From an uncultured Alphaproteobacteria bacterium (GTDB lineage Bacteria; Pseudomonadota; Alphaproteobacteria; CAAHEQ01; UBA3637): 64,000 nt of DNA. Positions 672-56,344 of the stretch are shown here, piece by piece. The notes under the pieces are model-generated. The model saw only the letters and a program-made list of their open reading frames with translations, did not search any database and was not told where the DNA came from. The DNA lies in contig CANQUX010000001.1 of the NCBI GenBank assembly GCA_947627155.1, forward strand, positions 64,046 to 128,045, written 5' to 3'. Position numbers and translations under genes: made by a program. Every line of letters begins with the position of its first letter. The first letter of the stretch is position 1.

Positions 672-1615
672 GTTTTTTAGGATTCGTCAGCCCCGAAAAG
701 TTAAGAGAAGCCGGTGTTTTGAGTATGAATCGCCGCAATTACGAAGTGATTGCCCGACATAATCGCCGGCGCTTATATCCGTTGGTTGATGATAAGGTGA
801 AAACCAAACAATTGGCAAACGATATCGGTTTAACAACGCCGCATTTAATTGCTTCCGTCAGTGCGCAATATGAAGTGAAAAATTTTTTGAATCTTGTCAA
901 AAATTATAAAAGTTTTGTGATTAAACCGGCGCACGGCAGCGGCGGAAAAGGTGTTTTGGTTATTCAATCTTATACGCAAAATCATTTTCGATTGCCTTCC
1001 GGGCGGGTATTGAGATATCGCGAAGTTTATCAGCATATTTCCAATATTTTAAGCGGATTATACAGTTTGGGCGGGCGATATGATACCGCTTTGTTTGAAG
1101 AAATGGTTCATTTCAGTGATGTTTTTAAAAATTACAGTTATCAGGGTATTCCCGATGTGCGCCTTATTATTTATGAAGGGTACCCTGTTTTGGCAATGAT
1201 GCGTTTGGCCACAAAAGAATCGGCCGGTCGGGCTAATTTGCATCAGGGCGCCGTGGGTGTGGGCATTGATATCAAAACGGGCAGGGCAATCTCTGCCGTT
1301 CAACACAACAAACCTGTTCGGTTTCATCCGGATACGAAAGCTGATTTAATGCAACTGTCCGTTCCCTTTTGGAAAGAGCATTTGCTGATTGCCGCACAAG
1401 GATATGAAATGACGGGATTGGGATATTTGGGAGCCGATATTGTGTTGGATAAGAATAAAGGACCGATGGTGTTAGAATTAAATGCCCGTCCGGGACTGGC
1501 CATTCAAATAGCCAATCAGTGCGGATTGAGAAGCGTGTTAAAGCGTGTGGAAAAAGATTTTCCGCGCGGATTATCCTTTAAAGAAAGAGTTGAATATGTT
1601 TTATCAACCTATTGA
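668..1615 (+). CDS. Alpha-L-glutamate ligase-like (RimK-family) ATP-grasp protein.
   Basis: Carries ATP-grasp motifs (KPAHGSGGKGVLV, ELNARPGL). Paired with the upstream 7TM protein, as in the known 7TM-transglutaminase / RimK-like operon arrangement. Confidence 0.7.
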   Translation: MSFLGFVSPEKLREAGVLSMNRRNYEVIARHNRRRLYPLVDDKVKTKQLANDIGLTTPHLIASVSAQYEVKNFLNLVKNYKSFVIKPAHGSGGKGVLVIQSYTQNHFRLPSGRVLRYREVYQHISNILSGLYSLGGRYDTALFEEMVHFSDVFKNYSYQGIPDVRLIIYEGYPVLAMMRLATKESAGRANLHQGAVGVGIDIKTGRAISAVQHNKPVRFHPDTKADLMQLSVPFWKEHLLIAAQGYEMTGLGYLGADIVLDKNKGPMVLELNARPGLAIQIANQCGLRSVLKRVEKDFPRGLSFKERVEYVLSTY

Positions 1616-1958
1616 ATTTATTTTATAAAAATATATTTTTTTTAAATTCTTTATTATTGCCGTAAAAAAGCGTTATCGGGACTATCAATTGAAAACATAT
1701 ATTAAAAAAAACGGTACGCGCCGCATTGAATTATCCGACGAATGGTTTTTGAAAAAAAGATTGTTTGATTATTCAAAAAGGAGAGATTATTGAAATAAAA
1801 AAAGCCCGAAAAATCAGGCTTTTCAAAGGCGAAGGACACGACCTGCTTTAACGATAATCGGCTGCTTTCTTCCGAACCTGACCGGCTGTTAACGAAAAAC
1901 ACCCGCATCCTTCAAGAAAAGTATCTCATTCTTTTTTGCATCTGTCAACAAAAAAATC

Positions 1959-1988
1959 TTGCAATCAGTGATTTTTTAAGGCTATAAT
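1959..1988 (+). promoter_or_regulatory. Sigma70-like promoter for argS.
   Basis: TTGCAA-N18-TATAAT, followed by RBS GAGGAG and the ATG at 2018. Confidence 0.45.
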
Positions 1989-2017
1989 CAAATAAATTTT
2001 TTGATGAGGAGAAGAAA

Positions 2018-3778
2018 ATGAGTTTACTTGCGATTGTCGAGAAAAAAGTTCATAACGCCTTTAAAACTTGCGGATATGATAAAGCGCCCACTTTAACAGG
2101 GCTTTCCGATCGGCCGGATATCAGCGATTATCAATCAAACGGGGCATTGCAGCTGGCCAAAAAAGAAAAGAAAAATCCGCGTGAAATTGCCGCGCGAATT
2201 GCCGATGTTTTAAAGACGGATTCGTTTTTTTCCGCTGTGTCGGTTGACGGGCCCGGTTTTATTAACATGCGCTTGAGCGATGCGGCTTTAATTCAATCGT
2301 TTCGCTTGTTTCAAAAGGGTAAAAACGGTTATCAACGCTCAACAAAAGCGCAACGCATTGTTATTGATTACGGCGGGCCGAATGTTGCCAAAGCTTTGCA
2401 TGTGGGGCATTTGCGTCCGGCGGTTATCGGAGAGGCAATTAAGCGCATTCATCAATATGCCGATGATTTTATTGTCGGTGATATTCATTTGGGCGATTGG
2501 GGATTGCCGATCGGGCTTTTAATTGCCGAAATTCAAGAGCGTTATCCCGATTTACCTTTCTTTTCGGAAAATTATCACGCTGACAAAGCCGTTGTGCCGT
2601 TTACGGAAAAAGATTTGGAAGAAATGTATCCGATTGCCAGTCAAAAATCGAAAAATGATGAAGCGTATTTGGCGCGTGCCAAAGAAAATACCCGTTTGTT
2701 GCAAAACGGCCATAGGGGATATCGGGCATTGTGGCGTCAAATTCTGAAATTATCCGTGCGGGAAATTAAGAAAAATTATAAAAAACTTGATGTGCATTTT
2801 GATTTATGGTTGGGCGAAAGCAGTGTGAATAATCGCTTGCAGAAAATGATTAAACGGTTGAAAAAGCAAGGTGTTTTAAAATATGATAACGGGGCGGAGG
2901 TGATTAAACTCGGCACAAGCGTGACCACAAAAAACAAACTGCCGCCGTTAATTATGGTTAAATCCGACGGCGCCGTAATGTACGGTGCAACCGATTTAGC
3001 CACCATTGAGGCGCGTATGGAAGATTATCAACCGAGTCGCATTTTGTATGTGGTTGATGCGCGTCAGGCACTGCACTTTGAGCAGGTTTTTTCGGCCGCG
3101 CGTAAGCTGAAATTGGTTCCGAAAACAGAATTGTTGCATTTGGGCTTCGGAACCATTACAGGCCCGGATAACAAGCCTTTTAAAACAAGAGACGGCGGCG
3201 TGATGACATTGGAACGCTTGCTGAATGAGGCGGTGCAGGCTTCCATGAAGAAAGTGGAGCAAAGCAAAAATGCCGCCAAATTAAGTGCGCAAAAAAAAGA
3301 GGTCATTGCCCGAAAAATTGCCGTCAGCGCGGTTAAATATACCGATTTGATGAATGAACGTATGCGCAATTATGTGTTTGATATTGAGAAAATGACGGCG
3401 TTAGAGGGAAAAACGGCGCCTTATATTCTTTATGGCTTGGTGCGGATGAAATCGGTTTTGTCAAAAATGCCGAAAGCTGCCGTTTTTAAAGGCTGTCAAA
3501 TGGTTTTAACCGAACCGGCGGAGCGCGCGCTGTTCATGCGGCTTTATCAAATGCCCGAGTTTTTTCAAACAGCCTATCAAAATGAAGCACCGCATGTGAT
3601 TTGTGATTATCTGTATAAATTGATTCAAGATTTTAACGTGTTTTATCATGATTGCCCGATTCGCGGCGCCAAAGAACCGTCGATTCGGTTTACGCGGTTT
3701 TTGTTAACGGCAACGGCTTATCGCATTGCTTTCGATATGGCACGAATCATCGGTTTGGAAATTCCGGAAATTATGTAA
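2018..3778 (+). CDS. argS: Arginyl-tRNA synthetase.
   Basis: Class I HIGH-type motif (HVGHLR) and full-length ArgRS-like sequence of 586 aa. Confidence 0.9.
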   Translation: MSLLAIVEKKVHNAFKTCGYDKAPTLTGLSDRPDISDYQSNGALQLAKKEKKNPREIAARIADVLKTDSFFSAVSVDGPGFINMRLSDAALIQSFRLFQKGKNGYQRSTKAQRIVIDYGGPNVAKALHVGHLRPAVIGEAIKRIHQYADDFIVGDIHLGDWGLPIGLLIAEIQERYPDLPFFSENYHADKAVVPFTEKDLEEMYPIASQKSKNDEAYLARAKENTRLLQNGHRGYRALWRQILKLSVREIKKNYKKLDVHFDLWLGESSVNNRLQKMIKRLKKQGVLKYDNGAEVIKLGTSVTTKNKLPPLIMVKSDGAVMYGATDLATIEARMEDYQPSRILYVVDARQALHFEQVFSAARKLKLVPKTELLHLGFGTITGPDNKPFKTRDGGVMTLERLLNEAVQASMKKVEQSKNAAKLSAQKKEVIARKIAVSAVKYTDLMNERMRNYVFDIEKMTALEGKTAPYILYGLVRMKSVLSKMPKAAVFKGCQMVLTEPAERALFMRLYQMPEFFQTAYQNEAPHVICDYLYKLIQDFNVFYHDCPIRGAKEPSIRFTRFLLTATAYRIAFDMARIIGLEIPEIM

Positions 3779-9007: not shown

Positions 9008-9035
9008 GGCTGAATAAAAGTCGGTTATAAACCAA

Positions 9036-9071
9036 AAACGCCGTTTCATGAATTGAAGCGGCGTTTTTTTT
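9036..9071. terminator. Bidirectional rho-independent terminator.
   Basis: AAACGCCG-loop-CGGCGTTTTTTTT. A-run on the other side. Confidence 0.6.
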
Positions 9072-9107
9072 ACGGTAAAAAGGTGTTTGAGTTTAATTGA
9101 AATTGCT

Positions 9108-10046
9108 TTAACGCACCAAATTCAGCCAATAAAACAGTTTAATCTTTTTTGATAAAGACAGATACTTATATGATATTATTTTTTCCTGCCGTAAAGAACG
9201 TACAGCCGGAGCGCTTTGTAAAATAAAATTTTTATCTTTCGTTTTAAACGTGTTTTTAATCAGTGCTCCTAAAATGGCGGCAATAATGGTTTTTTGAAGC
9301 AATTTCCAGAGTTTCGGCCGATCTTTAAAATGATTGTAAATTAAAGTCATTCCGCTGATTAAGGAATTCTGTTTTTTACTTGTAAAGCGCGAATTCATAA
9401 TAGATGTACTTGTAATGCGATAAAAATAAAGCTTTTCGTTTAAGTAAGCAAAATGAACGGGTTGTTCAAAAACAAACAGATTAAAAAGCCAATCTTCATA
9501 TACCAAATCGGGAAAACGAATTTTGCCGATAACTTCCCGCTTAAAAAGTTTGTTCCATGCGGCAAAAGCAAATATATTATAGCTTTTTGCATAATCAATC
9601 AGTGCGTTATGAAAAACACGAGGTTCGCAGGTAAGCGTTGAGAAAGGCATACTTTTTTCGGCAGAAACAAAATTACAAATAACAATATCAGTTTTTGTTT
9701 TTTGCTGAACGGAAAGGAGGCGGCTTAAAAAGTCTGGAGAAATGCAGTCATCGCCGTCAATGAAAGAAATATATTGCCCCGAAGCCATATCAAGCCCGTT
9801 GTTTCGGGAAACGGGAAGTCCTTGATTTTCTTGGTTTAAAATTTTAAAACGATTGTCGTTTTTTGCAAATTTTTGTATAATTGACAAAGAGTTATCAGTT
9901 GAACCATCATTGACACAAATAACTTCAAAGTCTTCAAAAGTTTGATTTTGAATGCTTTTTAAACATTCTTCAAGATATTTTTCGCAATTGAATATCGGAA
10001 CAATAACAGATATAAGCGGTTTATTAGACATAATATAAATTCCCAA
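9108..10046 (-). CDS. Family 2 glycosyltransferase.
   Basis: GT2 signature ISVIVPIFNCEKYLEECLKSIQNQT...VICVNDGSTDNS. Confidence 0.8.
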   Translation of the reverse strand: MGIYIMSNKPLISVIVPIFNCEKYLEECLKSIQNQTFEDFEVICVNDGSTDNSLSIIQKFAKNDNRFKILNQENQGLPVSRNNGLDMASGQYISFIDGDDCISPDFLSRLLSVQQKTKTDIVICNFVSAEKSMPFSTLTCEPRVFHNALIDYAKSYNIFAFAAWNKLFKREVIGKIRFPDLVYEDWLFNLFVFEQPVHFAYLNEKLYFYRITSTSIMNSRFTSKKQNSLISGMTLIYNHFKDRPKLWKLLQKTIIAAILGALIKNTFKTKDKNFILQSAPAVRSLRQEKIISYKYLSLSKKIKLFYWLNLVR

Positions 10047-11593: not shown

Positions 11594-12370
11594 TTATTCG
11601 CCTGGTTTCTTAAAATGTGAAAAATCTTTTAAATCAATCGGTTTTTCAAAATGAACGCGACGAATAAAATTGTTGTGACGTGCTAATTCCGTTCGGTATG
11701 TTTCTGCTTGCTTTGAATTGATTGTTTGTAAATAATCGGCATATTTTTGAAATAATCCGGTGTCCATTAATTCAACCGATATTTCAGAGACCTCACCCAA
11801 AACGGCTTGCAAAAGGCTTTTCGTGTGTTTATCATTATTGATTATCGGAAAAGAAAGCTGAGTTTCGGCTAAATGCGGCAACGAAATTTGAGCATTCACA
11901 ACAAGCGGCTTTGTTTGGGGATTAAAAATAAACACTGCTTCACCTTTTAAGTGATAAATTCCCATGAGACCTAATGACAGAAGCGGTTTTGAGAGCGCTT
12001 CTTCAAAAGGTTTATAATTTTCGGTTTCGGTAATAATTTGTTGCCCGTATAGGTGCCGTAACGTTTGTAAAACATCTATTTGAAGCCCTTGCATTTGAAA
12101 GCTGATATTTTCACCGTTTTGTCGAATAATCAATTTATCGATTCGATGAGATATTTTTAATTCGGGAAATGAAGCTTGATAAAAAATAAGTCCTTTTCCG
12201 CCGACAGACAGGCCTTTATGCGCATAATGAATGTCATTTTCCGAGAGATGATATTGCTTTAAAAATCGATGATAGCTTTTATTAACGGAAACATGCTGAT
12301 AAAGAATACCGGTTGCCAATAACAAAATAACACAAAAAGCAATCAGGTAAAACAGTTTATTCGTTTTCAT
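11594..12370 (-). CDS. Hypothetical membrane-anchored/secreted protein.
   Basis: N-terminal TM/signal segment. Overlaps the upstream gene (ATGA). Confidence 0.4.
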   Translation of the reverse strand: MKTNKLFYLIAFCVILLLATGILYQHVSVNKSYHRFLKQYHLSENDIHYAHKGLSVGGKGLIFYQASFPELKISHRIDKLIIRQNGENISFQMQGLQIDVLQTLRHLYGQQIITETENYKPFEEALSKPLLSLGLMGIYHLKGEAVFIFNPQTKPLVVNAQISLPHLAETQLSFPIINNDKHTKSLLQAVLGEVSEISVELMDTGLFQKYADYLQTINSKQAETYRTELARHNNFIRRVHFEKPIDLKDFSHFKKPGE

Positions 12371-13929: not shown

Positions 13930-14826
13930 TTATATATCACGTTCATTTTTTTGTTTCATTTTTTGATACACTATTTTTTTAACGGAATTATTCGACTCTC
14001 TCTTTTTTAATAAACGTATGATTTCCTTGTTTTTAACCCGTATGGCTAATTGGAGGGGCGAATGAGAAAATTTATTGGAAATATTTATTTTCGCACCGTT
14101 TTTCAGTAATGTTTCCACGGATTCTTTCTGATTGGAAGCAATGGCATACATTAAAGCCGTATTTCCCTGCATATCTTTAATATTGACATCGGCATTGTTT
14201 TCGATAAGCCATTCCAATGTGCGTTGATTAAAACGATTAACGCTTAACATTAAAGGTGTTTGTTCGTTATTGTTGGGAATATCAATATCTGCACCCGATT
14301 TTTTTAATTGAGCCATCATCTCTATGGAACCGGAACCGGCCGCGCGAAAAAATGCTGTTTCGCCTTTTTTGTTTCTGGCATTGATATCTGCGCCCGCTTT
14401 TACAAATAATTCAATCATTTGCATAGCTTTATGCGTACAGGCTTCCATTAAAGGTGTTCTGCCCGTTTCATCACAGATGTTTAAATTAAGATGATGATCT
14501 ATCATTGATTCCATAATTGTCGTATAGTCTCGCTCCGATTGATATTTATGAATATTTTTAATAAATGTTATAATCGGCAGTTGATTATTTTTATCTTTTT
14601 CATTCAAGTTAATTCCTGTTTCAATCAGTTTAAGAGCATATAATTTTTGTGTGGGATTTTGTAATGCGTAATTTAAAGCCAGTTTTAAGCTTTCTTTATC
14701 TTTAAGAACTTCGGGATTATCAATGATATCTTCAAATTTATTGATATCGTTATCGTAAATAATTCTTATTAAATCAACAGGTTCTTTCATTTTTACAGCC
14801 TTATCGTAAATAAAATAATAATGCAA
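13930..14826 (-). CDS. Ankyrin repeat protein.
   Basis: Multiple 33-aa ANK repeats (G-TPLM-A..., ...GADIN/VN). Confidence 0.8.
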   Translation of the reverse strand: MHYYFIYDKAVKMKEPVDLIRIIYDNDINKFEDIIDNPEVLKDKESLKLALNYALQNPTQKLYALKLIETGINLNEKDKNNQLPIITFIKNIHKYQSERDYTTIMESMIDHHLNLNICDETGRTPLMEACTHKAMQMIELFVKAGADINARNKKGETAFFRAAGSGSIEMMAQLKKSGADIDIPNNNEQTPLMLSVNRFNQRTLEWLIENNADVNIKDMQGNTALMYAIASNQKESVETLLKNGAKINISNKFSHSPLQLAIRVKNKEIIRLLKKRESNNSVKKIVYQKMKQKNERDI

Positions 14827-23530: not shown

Positions 23531-24487
23531 ATGACCGGCTTAAATGAACTTTTTGAAACAACCACCAGGCAGTCTTATTCGTTAGGACTGTCGGTTGCGT
23601 TGCATGCCATGGTGTTGTTTTTAATGCTGTTTAATTTTTCATGGGCAACGAATGATACCGATAAAACGCCGCCTGCCATATTGATGGTTGATTTAACAAA
23701 AGTACAAATCAGCGATAAAACGAATTTACCGCCGAAAGCGGAAAAGAAAAAGGAAACACCCAAACCGGCAGTTCAACCGAAGGAAAAGCCTCAAACCAAA
23801 ACACCCGCCGTTAAGCAGGAAGCGCCGCAAAAGAAAGAGGAAGTCAAGCCGGCGGAAAAAGTGCCGCCCAAAGAGGCTGCCAAAGTTGTTGAGAAAAAAG
23901 AGCCGCCGAAACAAAAACCGAAACCGCAACCCAAAGAAAAGCCCAAACCGAAATCTCAGCCCAAGCCGCAACCGAAACCGCAAGCGAAGCCGAAGCCGAA
24001 ACAACAGCCGAAAAACGACTTGCAAAGTTTGTTGGCATCGGTTGAAAAAGTTAAAAAACCGGCCAATTCCGCACCGAAAGAGGTTGAAGAAGTTGATGAA
24101 AATTCAGTGCTTAATGATGGTATTGAAGGCGGAACAAGCGGCAGTCGGCTTGAAATTTTAAGCGTTTCGGAAAAAGATTTTATTGCAAATGTTATTCGTC
24201 AACATTGGAATGTGAATGCCGGTGTTGAAAATGCCGAAAATATGATTGTAGAGTTGAGTGTTCTTTTAAATAAAGACGGTGGTGTGAAAGAGGTAAAAAT
24301 ATTAAATCAAAAGAACAATCCGGCTTTTCAATCAATGGCGGAAAGTGCCCGCAGAGCTATATATATTTGTGACGGATTAGGGGAAGAATCGCCTTTTCGG
24401 ATACTGGCAAAAAAGCACACGAAGAATTATAATACTTGGAAGAAGATACATTTATACATGAACCCGATTAAAGGAGAAGTTTTTTAG
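23531..24487 (+). CDS. tolA: TolA.
   Basis: N-terminal TM anchor, long Pro/Lys/Glu-rich linker, C-terminal TolA domain. Operon context. Confidence 0.75.
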   Translation: MTGLNELFETTTRQSYSLGLSVALHAMVLFLMLFNFSWATNDTDKTPPAILMVDLTKVQISDKTNLPPKAEKKKETPKPAVQPKEKPQTKTPAVKQEAPQKKEEVKPAEKVPPKEAAKVVEKKEPPKQKPKPQPKEKPKPKSQPKPQPKPQAKPKPKQQPKNDLQSLLASVEKVKKPANSAPKEVEEVDENSVLNDGIEGGTSGSRLEILSVSEKDFIANVIRQHWNVNAGVENAENMIVELSVLLNKDGGVKEVKILNQKNNPAFQSMAESARRAIYICDGLGEESPFRILAKKHTKNYNTWKKIHLYMNPIKGEVF

Positions 24488-35789: not shown

Positions 35790-35826
35790 CGGTATGTATA
35801 GAATGCCAAAAAGTAAGGTGAACGAA

Positions 35827-36936
35827 ATGTTTTTTAATGCTTTGAATGAAAAAAAAGATCGCGAGGGAAATACGCAACTGATTGTTGCCTGCCAAAAAGG
35901 TCAGTTAAAAAAAGTTCAACGGTTGATTCGTCTGGGAGCTTATGTAAATGCGCAAAATAAGAGCGGGGTAACGGCGTTAATGAAAGCTCTTCAAAATAAG
36001 GATTCTAAAATTGTGTCTGCTTTATTAAAGACGCCGGATATTGATGTAAATATTAAAGATTTATCCGGAAAGCCGGCGTTAATGTATGCCCTGTCCGATT
36101 GTTATTTGATGAATCTTGATATGTTCTCTCAACTCTTAAAGACACCGAGACTTGATGTTAATATTAAAGATAACTTTGGCAACACGACATTGATTCATAC
36201 GGTCGTCACGCACAATGCGGACGCCTTGTCAGAATTGTTAAAAGCACCGGGAATTAACGTAAATGCTCAAAATCATACCGGAATGACGGCGCTAATGTTT
36301 GCAGTGATAGAAGATAAAAAAACTATGTCGACTTTATTAAATGAATCGAAAATTGATGTGAATATCAAAAATTATCATGGGGAAACAGCGCTTATAATCG
36401 GCGCGAAGTATGGAGTTACAGGGATGGTATCGGAACTGTTAAAAGCGCCGAATATTGATGTGAATGCACAAGATAATAACGGAGATACGGCATTGATTAT
36501 TGCCGCTCGAAGGGGGTATACGAGAATTGTATCTGAATTGTTACAAATGCCGGATATTGCCGTTTCGGCTAAAAATAAAAACGAGGAAACAGCGTTTATG
36601 TGTGCCAAAAGAGAGAAACACACCGAATGTATTCAACTGATAAAATCATGGCCGTTATTCTCAACACTCATTTCAAAACAGGGAAATAATCTGACGAAAG
36701 AGGAACAAGAAGCAATAGCGAAATTCACTTACGATGAAAAATTCCTCCATTCCGAAAACGGGGCTTTGCAGAGAAGAAAAATTTATCAAAAACTGGAATA
36801 TGCAAAATCTCTGGTGCTTTATAAAAGCCTTCAAACAAAATTACGTCCGGAAGAAAAAGAACCCGATCGAAAAATTTTGCATCAAAAACGTTATCAGGAA
36901 CACATGATATCTCAACAATCTGTTCATCAAAGATAA
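35827..36936 (+). CDS. Ankyrin repeat protein.
   Basis: At least 8 ANK repeats. Start adjusted from the ORF-track 35794 because the promoter -10 abuts it. Confidence 0.8.
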   Translation: MFFNALNEKKDREGNTQLIVACQKGQLKKVQRLIRLGAYVNAQNKSGVTALMKALQNKDSKIVSALLKTPDIDVNIKDLSGKPALMYALSDCYLMNLDMFSQLLKTPRLDVNIKDNFGNTTLIHTVVTHNADALSELLKAPGINVNAQNHTGMTALMFAVIEDKKTMSTLLNESKIDVNIKNYHGETALIIGAKYGVTGMVSELLKAPNIDVNAQDNNGDTALIIAARRGYTRIVSELLQMPDIAVSAKNKNEETAFMCAKREKHTECIQLIKSWPLFSTLISKQGNNLTKEEQEAIAKFTYDEKFLHSENGALQRRKIYQKLEYAKSLVLYKSLQTKLRPEEKEPDRKILHQKRYQEHMISQQSVHQR

Positions 36937-51696: not shown

Positions 51697-52992
51697 ATGG
51701 AGACAGTTAAAAAGCCGGAATTATTATTGCCGGCGGGGTCGTTGGAACGGTTGAAAACGGCGTTTTTGTATGGCGCCGATGCCGTTTATGCCGGTATGCC
51801 GGGCGTGTGTTTAAGAAATAAAATTGCTTTCAGTTACGAAGAATTGCAAGAAGGAATTACCTTTGCGCATTCTTTAAAGAAAAAAGTTTATTTAACCGTT
51901 AATTTGTTTACGCATAATCATGATATTGCACGCGTCAAAGATTTTACGGCGCATTTAAAAGCTTTAAACCCCGACGGCGTAATTGTGGCCGATCCGGGCG
52001 TGTTCGGGCTTATTCGGCAAGAACTTCCCGATTTGCCGCTTCATATTTCAACACAAGCCAATATATGTTCCTATTTAACCGTTCGTTTTTGGCAAGAGCA
52101 GGGCGCGGCCTTATGCGTGTTGGGGCGGGAAGTGCCGTTGACGGAAATGAAAGAAATTCGCGAGAAATGCCCGGATATTCGCTTGGAAGCCTTTGTTCAC
52201 GGGGCGTTATGCGTCAGCTATTCGGGGCGGTGTTTGCTTTCAAATTTTATGACAGGACGCAGTGCCAATAAAGGCAATTGTGCACATGCGTGTCGGTGGC
52301 GTTATAAAGTATATAAAGCCGAAGAGCAGGCGGAAAACAGAGAAGATTCAACTTATTATATTGAAGAAGAAACGCGGCCGTTATCATTGATGCGCATTGA
52401 TGAAGATGAAAACGGCACATATATTATGAACTCGCGCGATTTATGCTGGTTGCCGCGGTTGCCCGATATATTGCCGATCGGGCTGGATTCGTTTAAAATT
52501 GAAGGGCGCAACAAATCGCAATATTATGCGGCGGTAACGGCGCGAACGTATCGAAAAGCCATTGACGATTGGTTTCAAAACCCGAACAATTGGCAGCCGG
52601 ATAAATATATGGATGAAATATTATCTTTGCAATCGCGCGGCTATACGCTCGGATTTTTAGACGGCAATGCCGGCCCCGAAGCGCATAATTATGATGTTTC
52701 GGCCAGTAACGGGGCTTATCGTTTTGCGGGGGTGGTGCGAACAGTTGAAAACGGACTGTTAACGCTTGAAATTAAGCATAAAATCATAAAAGGAATGACG
52801 CTTGAATTTTTATCGCCGTATCAGTTTGAGCCGATTAAAATAGCGGTTGAACGTTTTTATAACGCCGAAAACGCGGCCGAATGTCAAGAGCTTTCTGCGG
52901 GGCATTTAGGGCAGGCGGTTCAAATCCCGGTATCAGCCGAAACCGCGCGCTTATTACCGGCATTAACCGTTTGTCGCACAAAAATAAGTTAA
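51697..52992 (+). CDS. U32-family peptidase (RlhA/TrhP-like).
   Basis: U32 signature, including the conserved Cys-rich segment (CVSYSGRCLLSNF...GNCAHACRW). Confidence 0.8.
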   Translation: METVKKPELLLPAGSLERLKTAFLYGADAVYAGMPGVCLRNKIAFSYEELQEGITFAHSLKKKVYLTVNLFTHNHDIARVKDFTAHLKALNPDGVIVADPGVFGLIRQELPDLPLHISTQANICSYLTVRFWQEQGAALCVLGREVPLTEMKEIREKCPDIRLEAFVHGALCVSYSGRCLLSNFMTGRSANKGNCAHACRWRYKVYKAEEQAENREDSTYYIEEETRPLSLMRIDEDENGTYIMNSRDLCWLPRLPDILPIGLDSFKIEGRNKSQYYAAVTARTYRKAIDDWFQNPNNWQPDKYMDEILSLQSRGYTLGFLDGNAGPEAHNYDVSASNGAYRFAGVVRTVENGLLTLEIKHKIIKGMTLEFLSPYQFEPIKIAVERFYNAENAAECQELSAGHLGQAVQIPVSAETARLLPALTVCRTKIS

Positions 52993-53003
52993 GCGTTGGT
53001 TTA

Positions 53004-53039
53004 AAGCGTGGGCGTGAAAGAATGCGACACGCTTTTTTT
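53004..53039 (+). terminator. Intrinsic terminator of the U32 gene.
   Basis: AAGCGTG...CACGCTT stem followed by 7 T. Confidence 0.55.
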
Positions 53040-53070
53040 CCTTTATCGGTGCGGGTGAAGTAATAAGATA

Positions 53071-53154
53071 CTCTCTTTTTCCCCTCTATCGGCGGGTGTG
53101 ATGCGCTCAAGAAAGGAGCGCATCGCTATGGGCCGATAGAGGAGAAGAGGGAGG
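53071..53154. repeat. Repeat unit A.
   Basis: Outer stem 53083-53093/53132-53142, extendable with G·U pairs. Inner hairpin ATGCGCTC-aagaaag-GAGCGCAT at 53101-53123. Internal loops GGGTGTG / CGCTATGG. Confidence 0.7.
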
Positions 53155-53229
53155 GCAGGCTGTCATTTTGGCAGAAGTGGTAAAGACAAACGATATTTTT
53201 CCCTTCTTTGTTTATAAGTGGTACTTTTT

Positions 53230-53293
53230 CTTATTTTCGGCGGGAAGTGCCGGCGCGTGGAACGTGCGCCGGCGCGGTGTGCCGAAAATGAAG
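53230..53293. repeat. Repeat unit B.
   Basis: Outer stem 53233-53241/53281-53289. Inner hairpin CCGGCGC...GCGCCGG at 53250-53272. Internal loops GGGAAGTG / CGCGGTGT. Confidence 0.65.
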
Positions 53294-53342
53294 CGATTCG
53301 GTAAGTTAAAAGGGGAGTTGGGAAGTAGCAGTTGTGACACTA

Positions 53343-53405
53343 TCTCTCATTCTCGGCGGATGTGGGACGTCGCGGACGTCCCGCTAATGTGCCGAGAATG
53401 AGAAA
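53343..53405. repeat. Repeat unit C.
   Basis: Outer stem 53348-53357/53391-53400. Inner hairpin GGACGTC-gcg-GACGTCC at 53365-53381. Internal loops GGATGTG / CGCTAATGT. Confidence 0.65.
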
Positions 53406-53440
53406 ATGGCAGGGAAACTTATACTTTTTAAGGTTGGCAC

Positions 53441-53520
53441 CGATATTTTCCCTCTATCGGCGGGTGTGGAGCGGCGCAACTGTGCCGCTCCGCTATGGGC
53501 CGATAAGAGAAAAGGGAGAG
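53441..53520. repeat. Repeat unit D.
   Basis: Outer stem 53451-53461/53499-53509. Inner hairpin GAGCGGC...GCCGCTC at 53469-53490. Internal loops GGGTGTG / CGCTATGG, identical to unit A. Confidence 0.7.
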
Positions 53521-53594
53521 GTGCCCCGCTGAATGGAAGCCGTAAAGGCGGGGCATCGGGGGGGCGATGGCTCACGCCATCGAAAAAGCTGGCC

Positions 53595-55007: not shown

Positions 55008-55243
55008 GAACTTTCCTCCCGTGTTCTATCTTTCAATTGTATAAATTAAACGTACCTTTAATGCAACGCGGATTCAGGGGCAAAATTACCCTCAAAAATT
55101 GGTGAAACAGCCTTTTTATAACCGTTTGATATTGCATTAAATTTACCTCCAAATAAATTTTTTTTGAAAAAATGCAAAAAAAGTGTTGCAAAAATCGTAC
55201 GTTTTTTTGATGCATATTCAAAAAAAATCGCCTTGATGAGAGG

Positions 55244-55335
55244 CGACCGGAAGTTGGAAACTACTTATACGAGATAGTGCGGTATATTGACCAAAAGGCT
55301 ATTTTACCGCCTTCCGGTCGTTCGACCATTTTCCC
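55244..55335. repeat. Divergent nested-hairpin element related to the 53.0-53.5 kb array.
   Basis: Outer stem CGACCGGAAG/CTTCCGGTCG (55244-55253/55311-55320). Inner hairpin GCGGTA...TACCGC. It shares the flanking CGAYCATTTTCCC motif with array units (53192, 53441). Confidence 0.45.
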
Positions 55336-55567: not shown

Positions 55568-56344
55568 ATGGAGAAAATGAAAATGTCGAATGAAATAGTA
55601 ACTGCCGTTCAACGAAATAATTTAGAAGCCGTTCAAAAGTTAATTAAACAAGGCGCTTCCGTTAATTTGGTGAATAAAGATGTTTCCTTGTTGCTTTTTG
55701 CTGTCGGAACAAAGAAAAATCCGCAAATTATACAAGAACTAATAAACGGCGGTGCCAATGTTAATCGCGCCAATGACAAGGGCTTGTCACCGTTAATTAT
55801 TGCTTCGGCAAGTCAGCAACCGAAAGTTGTTGAAATGTTATTAAATGCCGGTGCAAATGTTAATCAACCGGATATTCAGGGAACTACGCCCGTTATGTAT
55901 TCCGCCATGTGGGGTGATATTGTAACGACTCGTTTGTTAATCGGGGCCGGAGCTGATGTTAATCAAACGAATCATGAGGGACTGACGGCGCTTATGCGAA
56001 CCGTAGCGGAGGGACAAAAAGAAGTTGCCGAAACGCTTATTAAATCCGGCGCCGATGTGAATAAAGTTACCAATAACGGTTATTCCGCATTGATGTTTGC
56101 GGCATCGGAAGGACATACCGATACCGTTAAAGTGCTTCTGTCAGCCGGAGCTGATGTAAAACAGAAAAATAAAGAAGGTAAAACGGCTCTGGATATGGTT
56201 AATGATGCCATTAAAGAAAATCCTCAAGCCAAAGAAAAATTTATTGAAATTCAAAAGCTTTTAAACGGCGGATTGTGTAAAACATTATCCAATGCCCAAG
56301 AACCGACACAAACATCGGTGAGGAATAATTCAAACGAACGGTAA
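55568..56344 (+). CDS. Ankyrin repeat protein.
   Basis: Seven ANK repeats (GADVN/GANVN periodicity). Confidence 0.85.
   Translation: MEKMKMSNEIVTAVQRNNLEAVQKLIKQGASVNLVNKDVSLLLFAVGTKKNPQIIQELINGGANVNRANDKGLSPLIIASASQQPKVVEMLLNAGANVNQPDIQGTTPVMYSAMWGDIVTTRLLIGAGADVNQTNHEGLTALMRTVAEGQKEVAETLIKSGADVNKVTNNGYSALMFAASEGHTDTVKVLLSAGADVKQKNKEGKTALDMVNDAIKENPQAKEKFIEIQKLLNGGLCKTLSNAQEPTQTSVRNNSNER

Follow-up and report, generated by a model that had tools for sequence, protein, structure and literature searches.

Nested-hairpin repeats beside a pilin-like gene family in uncultured Alphaproteobacteria

Positions 53041-53530 of a 64-kb stretch of DNA from an uncultured alphaproteobacterium (the window, i.e., the whole stretch analysed) form a module of structured repeats, situated between two convergent genes that encode a U32 peptidase and a pilin-like protein. 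These repeats are closest to bacterial interspersed mosaic elements (BIMEs) and to BOX-type mosaics; they belong to no named family and are previously undescribed. The repetitive extragenic palindromes (REPs) of BIMEs occur as hundreds of dispersed extragenic copies in which REP and inverted REP alternate, and the gene for the cognate Y1 (HUH) transposase is typically flanked by REPs. A REP is a 20-50-nt palindrome with a conserved tetranucleotide, usually GTAG, before it, and the y, z1 and z2 REPs of Escherichia coli BIMEs need a bulge and are recognised on one strand only (PMC8266576). As with REPs, BIMEs and REPINs, the repeats described here are extragenic imperfect palindromes with conserved stem mismatches, arranged in ordered mosaics of unit types that have their own linkers; compensatory changes are found in the variable part, the two strands differ, and clusters lie between convergent genes and after terminators. 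The conserved mismatch and the one-strand recognition of REPs have counterparts in an asymmetric internal loop and two wobble pairs (30-33 of 38 copies), and in the different scores of sense and reverse strands with a covariance model. However the present units are twice as long, are nested with two helices, are mostly in direct orientation and have no GTAG. They are confined to the flanks of one gene family, and no associated transposase has been seen so far.

The RNA of the Neisseria Correia elements is a substrate of RNase III. Correia elements and the BOX elements of Streptococcus pneumoniae (boxA-boxB(n)-boxC) are, like the present repeats, found in one lineage and display strong secondary structure, and BOX shares with them a modular build from three kinds of subunit in variable number. 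BOX elements are structured, transcribed, and thought to affect co-transcribed genes (PMC3049150). Both BOX and Correia are thought to act via the RNA of co-transcribed genes, as is proposed here for the present repeats. There is no sequence similarity to either, and both are scattered at a hundred or more chromosomal sites and are not tied to one gene family; in addition Correia elements, unlike the present repeats, have terminal inverted repeats and a TA target duplication.

Two other systems share the shape of the fold. In the early RNase III signals of phage T7 (R0.3-R1.3), two stems that together make about two helical turns are split by an asymmetric internal loop, and related signals stand in series between genes, with conserved loops and differing stems. 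T7 R1.1, a hairpin 60 nt long whose internal loop is asymmetric (4/5 nt), is cleaved by RNase III (PMC6121014). The units described here have this geometry (a loop of 4-5/5-6 nt and 25-33 bp), the comparison being a working analogy of geometry only. The T7 signals are part of a known polycistronic transcript with demonstrated cleavage, whereas the present units lie outside annotated transcription units. The folded attC site of integrons consists of stem, unpaired spacer, stem and variable loop, with strand-specific features. It functions as a folded single strand, and its low sequence conservation, high structural conservation and unpaired central spacer are also found in the present units. 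Unlike attC, the units are found without an R'/R'' core (GTTRRRY), an integrase or an array of promoterless cassettes, and they stand side by side without open reading frames (ORFs) between them.

Repeat units and their three subtypes

The building block is almost certainly a nested hairpin of about 82 nt, assembled into a mosaic of three subtypes, and a lineage-specific repeat that is seen only beside one pilin-like gene family. The module in the window (53041-53520) has one half copy and four full copies, all on the + strand (Table 1). Each unit folds into a lower stem, an asymmetric internal loop (4-5 nt/5-6 nt), an upper stem and a loop, with free energies of -41 to -54 kcal/mol and z scores of -4.7 to -9 against dinucleotide shuffles. 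The pattern CGGCGG-N2-3-GTG...TGNGCCG has four matches in the 64 kb, all at this locus and all on the + strand, and none in 100 shuffles. A covariance model, R1, built from 38 units and run over about 150 kb, finds in the window only these four units (65-83 bits, E <= 5e-14). The original prediction, made from the letters of the window and a list of its ORFs, had described 4.5 nested-hairpin units with conserved internal loops, and pattern, model and folds agree with it on four folding units, as does sequence comparison on a half unit. The description of these as a tandem array has to be withdrawn: the units are not head-to-tail, successive unit starts are separated by 148, 116 and 104 bp and the model hits by spacers of 27-66 nt, they are of three subtypes, and Tandem Repeats Finder reports nothing.

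The unit consensus consists of a lower stem of 10-20 bp, an internal loop with GGRW(A) on the 5′ side and KR(A)UGK on the 3′ side, an upper stem of 11-13 bp that opens with conserved G-C, U·G and G-C pairs, and a variable loop. The three subtypes are type B (5′ side ATTTTCGGCGGRAAGTG, 3′ side CGCGGTGKGCCGAAAAT), type C (CATTCTCGGCGGRTGTG and CGCTATGTGCCGAGAATG) and type D (CTCTATCGGCGGRTGTG and CGCTATGGGCCGATAGRG). Both the lower stem and the conserved spacers are specific to the subtype, the latter being B-to-C, C-to-D and D-to-B spacers and a “half-D to D” junction. Modules are typically ordered leader-B-C-D; the order in the window is half-D, D (unit A), B, C, D. Junctions of the window module are found again at other loci, which are designated here by L numbers. 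The junction of half-D with full D is present in L050 (~7160-7050, - strand) and L126, and the D-to-B spacer is conserved in L124, where it lies between units at 11805 and 11664, downstream of another pilin-like gene. The purine-rich 3′ flank of unit D merges into the terminator hairpin of the pilin-like gene, and this junction, D + GAGAGGTGCCCCGC, recurs in L077 and L123.

Hybrid units exist, e.g., with a C-type 5′ arm and a D-type 3′ arm, and there are also truncated half units and degenerate copies (e.g., L050 3891-3968 and L077). Most units in one module share an orientation, but some modules contain C units that face the other way. The upstream module of L126 carries a direct, near-identical duplication of ~155 bp (~9020-9350, + strand; read by eye), which comprises a degenerate B-type unit and its spacer and shows that tandem duplication enlarges the modules. 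In L124 a single C unit with ~30 nt lies between two C-runs, and L122, L126 and the window have no unit at this place. This is suggestive of an insertion but is not proof of it: the flanking C-runs may or may not represent a target duplication, and no parent insertion sequence (IS) was seen, without a search of an IS library. Comparison of the outer edges of modules revealed no common ends and no target duplication.

Covariation and strand preference

The 38 units were aligned on a fixed structure (alignment A1; lower helix, columns 8-22/66-80; upper helix, columns 28-39/48-59). Standard pairs fill 90.9% of the pair cells, compared with 74.6% in column shuffles and 41-53% when the partner columns are slid. 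Changes on both sides are found in 18 of the 27 pairs (15.6 in shuffles, 10-14 slid), and double-change cells number 200, against 77 in shuffles, with none of 500 shuffles reaching 200; the copies are paralogs that share alleles, and these counts do not represent independent events. However the slid-partner control retains the relatedness of the copies and yet falls far short. Covariation is seen in 10 of the 12 pairs of the upper helix, where a position can have as many as four pair types, and there are 32 distinct upper-stem arm pairs. Compensated transversions are among these, as in GCTGTCCC/GGGACAGC versus GCTATCCC/GGGATAGC and GCCGGCTT/AAGCCGGC versus GCCGTCTT/AAGACGGC.

The structure of the repeat is clearly under selection, as originally predicted; the compensatory changes and the conserved internal loop are present across the 38 copies. 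The case that the prediction had set against itself, a single locus with no covariation, is not what was found, as there are further loci and the copies covary. Covariation had initially been read from the units of the window; it holds for the 38 copies, but the four window units are too few to demonstrate it on their own, and their differences are those of three diverged subtypes.

Conservation on the sense strand extends to two wobble pairs, U·G at columns 29-58 (33 of 38 units) and G·U at columns 38-49 (30 of 38). All 38 units fold better as the sense strand, and R1 scores the same units at 55-91 bits in sense and 20-48 bits on the reverse strand. The count of G·U pairs based on minimum free energy structures, 171 versus 41, overstates the strand bias. 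One strand is favoured for folding, but this evidence cannot separate RNA from single-stranded DNA. Thus a hint in the original prediction of a function as plus-strand RNA is supported with respect to one-strand folding, by the wobbles and by the better sense fold of every unit, and not with respect to the kind of nucleic acid.

Association with a pilin-like gene family

All ten pilin-like genes examined have a unit within 300 bp. In the approximately 150 kb searched with R1, significant matches are all within about 1.3 kb of a pilin-like gene, L013 aside, where the contig ends inside the repeats. A degenerate pattern was used to scan one genome per GTDB species. The gene was not used in the pattern, and three of the four loci obtained by pattern only (L050, L077 and L111) adjoin a pilin-like gene, L013 being the fourth. 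Five further family members were fetched (L122, L123, L124/L125, L126 and L127/L128) and all carry the repeats. R1 also recovered upstream units of L111 that the pattern had missed, and it detected no copies away from the pilin-like genes in the rest of the ~20-kb loci L124 and L126. A distant family member, in L129, has no downstream module, and its contig starts inside a D unit just upstream of the gene.

The modules have a polarity. In L050, L111, L124 and L126 the gene is bracketed, with one module upstream and an inverted one downstream. The upstream module has the same orientation as the gene and ends with “D unit + GGGGAAAAAATAAATGATGCAA...TTGACA”, of which TTGACA is part of the promoter of the gene. 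The downstream module is inverted and ends at a GCCCCGC...GCGGGGC hairpin just past the stop codon. On either side of the gene, therefore, the units have their sense strand running toward it. The GCCCCGC...GCGGGGC hairpin is presumed to be the terminator of the pilin-like gene; it is kept in the window, L122, L123, L124, L126 and L077, and forms the inner edge of the downstream module in most of the loci compared. The window has a downstream module only, and this begins directly 3′ of the U32 terminator. The convergence of the two flanking genes on the repeats was correctly predicted, and the terminator that had been placed 5′ of the array is plausible from its fold (Table 1). The link to a gene family, the three subtypes with their own spacers and the inverted modules that bracket the gene were not part of the original prediction.

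Two candidate promoter motifs were considered and rejected. At module edges a “CTGATGATAATTT-T7” motif recurs, but neither a usable -35 element nor TGn goes with it, and a sigma-54 reading of a “TGGCAGG” motif fails for want of a -12 element. As a separate observation, there is a hot spot for insertion in the short segment that separates the stop codon of the pilin-like gene from its terminator hairpin (“GCCATCGCCCCCCC | GATGCCCCGCC”). This segment contains a C-run, at 53558-53566 on the - strand of the window, whose length differs among loci, and the inserts are the C unit with ~30 nt of L124 (11460-11570) and an unrelated sequence of ~270 nt in L077 (~2000-2270).

In the GTDB scan, real copies account for 5 of 115 loci among the matches listed (L013, L050, L077, L111 and their genomes); most of the matches listed are chance occurrences in high-G+C genomes. 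Unmistakable copies are present in at least three metagenome-assembled genomes of uncultured Alphaproteobacteria from the rabbit gut (“Lapin”; L050, L013/L111 and L077). The taxonomic range is thus a lower bound, as the counts are of the matches listed. Modules are also found in ENA metagenome contigs. Two of these, which carry the genes of the window, end inside the array (L001 at ~53441 and L002 at ~53387) and overlap by 55 nt (~53387-53441), and the contigs of L013, L077 and L129 also end in modules. The contig ends inside the array are the signature of a repeat that breaks the assembly graph. Gene callers place spurious ORFs across modules, e.g., L127 1604-2310.

Searches for known families gave no assignment. 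At gathering thresholds Rfam showed nothing in the region, and the best sub-threshold matches were to microRNA-type hairpin models and PtaRNA1 (15-23 bits, E >= 0.05). A blastn search of plasmid and phage collections revealed no similarity, and pattern scans of JGI metagenomes and IMG/VR yielded only chance matches in G+C-rich coding sequence. Pfam scans of 54 of the 57 window ORFs displayed ordinary core genes and no transposase, integrase, Y1 transposase or cas genes; the Pfam lists of the L124, L126 and L129 loci contain no Y1_Tnp or other transposase. Several classes were rejected as follows. An attC identity was set aside on account of the conserved core TCGGCGG...GCCGA, the lack of ORFs between units and the lack of an integrase in the window or the loci. 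Clustered regularly interspaced short palindromic repeats (CRISPR) do not fit a mean column identity of 64% between units, spacers that are conserved between loci and the absence of cas genes. Classical REPs do not fit a repeat with no GTAG, of a different size and not dispersed. The statement in the original prediction that the repeats match no nameable RNA family, and are neither CRISPR nor attC, therefore holds, including in the Rfam scan that it had called for.

The 470-aa pilin-like protein of the window has 587 homologs at E <= 1e-5, many of them on contigs of 1.5-3 kb. Searches of PDB, Pfam and NCBIfam gave no significant family for it. The label “pilin-like”, taken from the original prediction, is supported by the N-terminal motif only, as the Pfam N_methyl match is below threshold (12.3 bits, cut-off 21.2). 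Family members have a near-identical prepilin-like N-terminus of 45 residues, a conserved C-terminal “...ALCE” and a highly variable middle that is Cys-rich and EGF-like (teneurin/laminin EGF Pfam matches in L050). Several paralogs are found per contig, in unrelated core-genome contexts, and further paralogs are on a 192-kb NCBI contig. Judged by these sequence features, the family looks like a variable adhesin repertoire.

A strong promoter, TTGACA-17-TATACT (11 of 12 matches), lies before every full-length pilin-like gene; it is followed by a structured RNA of ~200 nt that ends in an intrinsic terminator, GGUCGCCUCUCAUCAAGGCGAUUUUUU, and by ~215 nt more of conserved leader between this terminator and the ATG. 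An RNAalifold structure of five leader copies has 53 pairs, 12 of them with compensatory double changes. The leader could be of riboswitch or attenuator type, or an sRNA (small RNA) gene, and could represent a new RNA family. In the window leader there is a sub-threshold match to sRNA-Xcc1 (RF02221) at 55237-55319 on the - strand (39.8 bits, gathering threshold 53; E = 1.3e-5 in a 491-nt search), which was not recovered at E <= 1e-3 in 62 kb of five other loci.

Table 1. Features of the window and related features at other loci (positions in the window unless a locus is named).
Feature	Position	Strand	Remarks
U32 peptidase gene	51697-52992	+	Pfam PF01136, E = 3e-84
Intrinsic terminator of U32 peptidase gene	53003-53039	+	Stem AAAGCGUG/CACGCUUU, then U run; -17.5 kcal/mol, z = -3.6
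Half unit (5′ arm only, D-type)	~53041-53062	+	68% identical to 5′ part of unit A
Unit A (D-type)	53072-53153	+	R1 83.0 bits; -54.2 kcal/mol, z = -7.5; lower stem CTCTATCGGC/GCCGATAGAG; internal loop GGGU/UAUGG; upper stem GUGAUGCGCUC/GAGCGCAUCGC
D-to-B spacer (AGGCTGTCATTTTGGCAGAAGTGGTAAAGACAAACGATATTTTT...)	53154-53219	+	Conserved with D-to-B spacer of L124
Unit B (B-type)	53220-53302	+	R1 73.9 bits; -40.9 kcal/mol, z = -4.75; lower stem ATTTTCGGC/GCCGAAAAT; loop GGGAA/GGUGU; 13-bp upper stem, GAA triloop
Unit C (C-type)	53336-53412	+	R1 65.5 bits; -45.2 kcal/mol, z = -9.0; lower stem CTCATTCTCGGC/GCCGAGAATGAG; loop GGAU/UAAUGU; upper stem GUGGGACGUC/GACGUCCCGC
Unit D (D-type), nearest to pilin-like gene	53440-53520	+	R1 80.7 bits; -44.3 kcal/mol
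Conserved hairpin GCCCCGC...GCGGGGC	53523-53554	-	3′ of pilin-like gene; then pyrimidine/U-rich tract on - strand
Pilin-like Cys-rich protein gene, 470 aa	53595-55007	-	Prepilin-like N-terminus GRSMVEMLGVLAIIGVISIGGIAGY / GRSMVEMLGVLAIIGV...
Other pilin-like family members	L050 4656-6581 (-); L111 6071-7732 (+); L077 691-1962 (+)		With the window gene, proteins P0001-P0120
Structured leader RNA	55452-55222 (-); L050 6790-7024 (-); L111 5606-5849 (+); L124 9543-9780 (+); L126 9552-9791 (+)		
Host-interaction / eukaryote-like genes	13930-14826 (-), 35794-36936 (+), 55568-56344 (+); L050 490-1440, 1933-3552; L124 6624-8804, 12741-21329		

Other features of this DNA are separate from the repeats. 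Several ankyrin-repeat proteins, Sel1 and EGF-like domains, and a 2862-aa protein with polymorphic-outer-membrane-protein repeats are encoded, and this eukaryote-like protein set suggests a host- or protist-associated lifestyle. An imperfect CCGAAA / 12-nt / 24-nt repeat at window 23906-24013 (+) lies inside ORF 23531-24487, which is flanked by ExbD/TolR-like and TolB-like genes; the repeat probably corresponds to a repetitive linker in a TolA-like protein. In L050 an RNase P RNA (class A, 287 bits) at 1597-1976 (+) overlaps the start of the listed ORF 1933-3552.

Possible roles of the repeats

A role of the repeats as hairpin RNA, on transcripts that run toward the gene, in which they would serve as an insulator or an RNase III-type signal, is tentatively favoured, because the outside-in polarity is fixed and the copies are confined to one gene family. 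Duplication, unequal recombination and, now and then, insertion would spread and rearrange the repeat DNA along with the gene family, as happens with BIME, BOX and Correia. The repeat DNA would act once transcribed, when RNA from the neighbouring gene carries the sense hairpins; in the window this RNA would come from transcription running past the end of the U32 peptidase gene, and would be antisense to the pilin-like mRNA. The sense hairpins, long duplexes of 25-33 bp that a 4/5-nt internal loop interrupts, share the geometry of the phage T7 RNase III signals, and with RNase III or an exonuclease acting on them may stop, trim or destabilise incoming transcripts. Each pilin-like gene would therefore be under its own promoter and structured leader only.

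Several observations weigh against this reading. The modules are found after a good intrinsic terminator of the co-directional upstream gene (window, L050, L124, L126 and L077), and thus little read-through RNA may reach them. The downstream modules of L124 and L126 have no gene that reads into them, only an AT-rich region, and no promoter-like element is conserved at the module edge or before the units. Some downstream modules contain units in the opposite orientation (L122 2300-2380, L124 11870-11951 and L127 1796-1877). When the 27 pairs of the fixed structure are counted without the two conserved wobbles, G·T and A·C number 61 and 46. Thus the strand bias rests on the core helices, where the count is 42 versus 11, and on the conserved positions; A·C is found mostly at distal mismatches that are particular to a type. 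In addition, a hairpin recognised as single-stranded DNA would be expected to show G·T wobbles and conserved mismatches just as well.

Recognition as DNA would be the mode of action if the units were of the REP type, i.e., non-autonomous mobile DNA whose single-stranded hairpins are recognised strand-specifically by an HUH/Y1 transposase encoded elsewhere (a REP-associated tyrosine transposase, RAYT), the modules being equivalents of BIMEs. This is the chief rival of the RNA reading, and the two are the serious accounts, but it is held to be less likely. Imperfect palindromes with conserved stem mismatches, several types of which form mosaics with defined linkers, recall the y, z1 and z2 REPs of E. 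coli BIMEs, and compensatory changes are common in REPINs also (PMC3116915). The strand bias with conserved G·T, the hybrid and half units, the single-unit insertion between C-runs in L124 relative to L122, L126 and the window, the breaking of metagenome assemblies in modules, and the position of modules outside transcription units and after terminators are all consistent with it. However neither GTAG nor another flanking tetranucleotide is conserved: GTAG is within 30 nt of only 6 of the 38 units, at varying positions, and the upstream flank carries little information beyond the stem. The units measure 55-82 nt and not 20-50 nt, and are mostly direct, without the alternation of REP and inverted REP. 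Nor are they dispersed, with no copies away from pilin-like genes in the 64-kb window or the ~20-kb L124 and L126. There is no transposase or Y1_Tnp domain in 54 of 57 window ORFs, and no match in the plasmid or phage collections. The original suggestion of a REP/BIME-like family or a cluster of miniature inverted repeat transposable elements (MITEs) can thus be kept in one form only. A REP/BIME-like mosaic fits best, but a generic dispersed REP or MITE is unsupported, as copies are found only beside pilin-like genes in ~150 kb and lack GTAG.

The remaining accounts are less probable. Structure-specific recombination sites, attC-like in principle, would allow an unknown recombinase or homologous recombination to move, duplicate and swap pilin-like cassettes, and so give a variable adhesin repertoire. 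Inverted modules do bracket a complete cassette of promoter, leader, gene and terminator at L050, L111, L124 and L126; the gene family is large, with several paralogs per contig set in unrelated core-genome contexts and with conserved 5′ and 3′ ends and variable sequence between; the order of stem, unpaired spacer, stem and variable loop with strand-specific features resembles folded attC, and hybrid units show crossing-over inside units. Against these, there is no GTTRRRY/RYYYAAC core, no integrase or recombinase in any locus read, and no common terminal sequence or target duplication at the outer edges; in the window copy and in L129 the gene is accompanied by a module on a single side, and several units per side would not be needed. 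The account is improbable. A similarly small probability is given to repeats with no function of their own, which would be flanking sequences co-amplified with the gene family and homogenised by gene conversion, their arms being kept complementary by hairpin-templated repair (quasi-palindrome correction). Co-duplication would explain the strict link to one gene family, and the limited set of upper-stem alleles common to several unit types and loci, and the degenerate copies (L050 3891-3968, L077), are also consistent with this account. Template-switch correction should, however, erase asymmetry, yet the 4/5-nt loop and the two wobbles are kept in nearly all 38 copies while adjacent pairs turn over, and module composition varies among paralogs far beyond simple co-duplication. 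Very improbable is a role as independent sRNA genes, or as opposite-strand 3′ stabilisers or terminators of the pilin-like mRNA, even though hairpin stability is very high on either strand, downstream modules come immediately after the gene, and there are weak sigma-70-like matches at 53168-53197 and 53398-53425. Such promoter-like matches are at chance level (6, versus 4.9 in shuffles) and their positions upstream of the units are not conserved. The hairpins lack a following U-tract on both strands, a module upstream of the gene cannot act at its 3′ end, and in downstream modules the wobble bias favours the strand antisense to the gene. The proposal of tandem sRNA genes in the original prediction is not sustained, as the units are neither preceded by a promoter-like position that is conserved nor followed by a terminator.

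A wider claim should also be considered, that the modules are a dedicated cis-acting device of the variable adhesin family, in the form either of folded-strand sites for cassette recombination or of RNase III-type RNA insulators against neighbouring or antisense transcription. This is unlikely, but if true in either form it would represent a new kind of gene-family-specific repeat system and not a selfish interspersed repeat, and if folded units do recombine whole pilin-like cassettes, an integron-like logic without an integron.

REP, BIME, BOX and Correia repeats are usually seen as scattered and largely selfish, whereas the repeats described here are tied to, and polarised around, one surface-protein family. 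With structural selection that is as clear as theirs, this tie and the fixed polarity point to a job connected with those genes. With units of ~82 nt, three subtypes and natural hybrids, the repeats form a compact test case for RNA versus single-stranded-DNA action of such elements. They also explain why pilin-like genes lie on broken contigs of 1.5-3 kb in metagenome assemblies, and bring to light, in uncultured Alphaproteobacteria of the gut, a large and unannotated family of pilin-like adhesins that has a structured leader RNA of its own.

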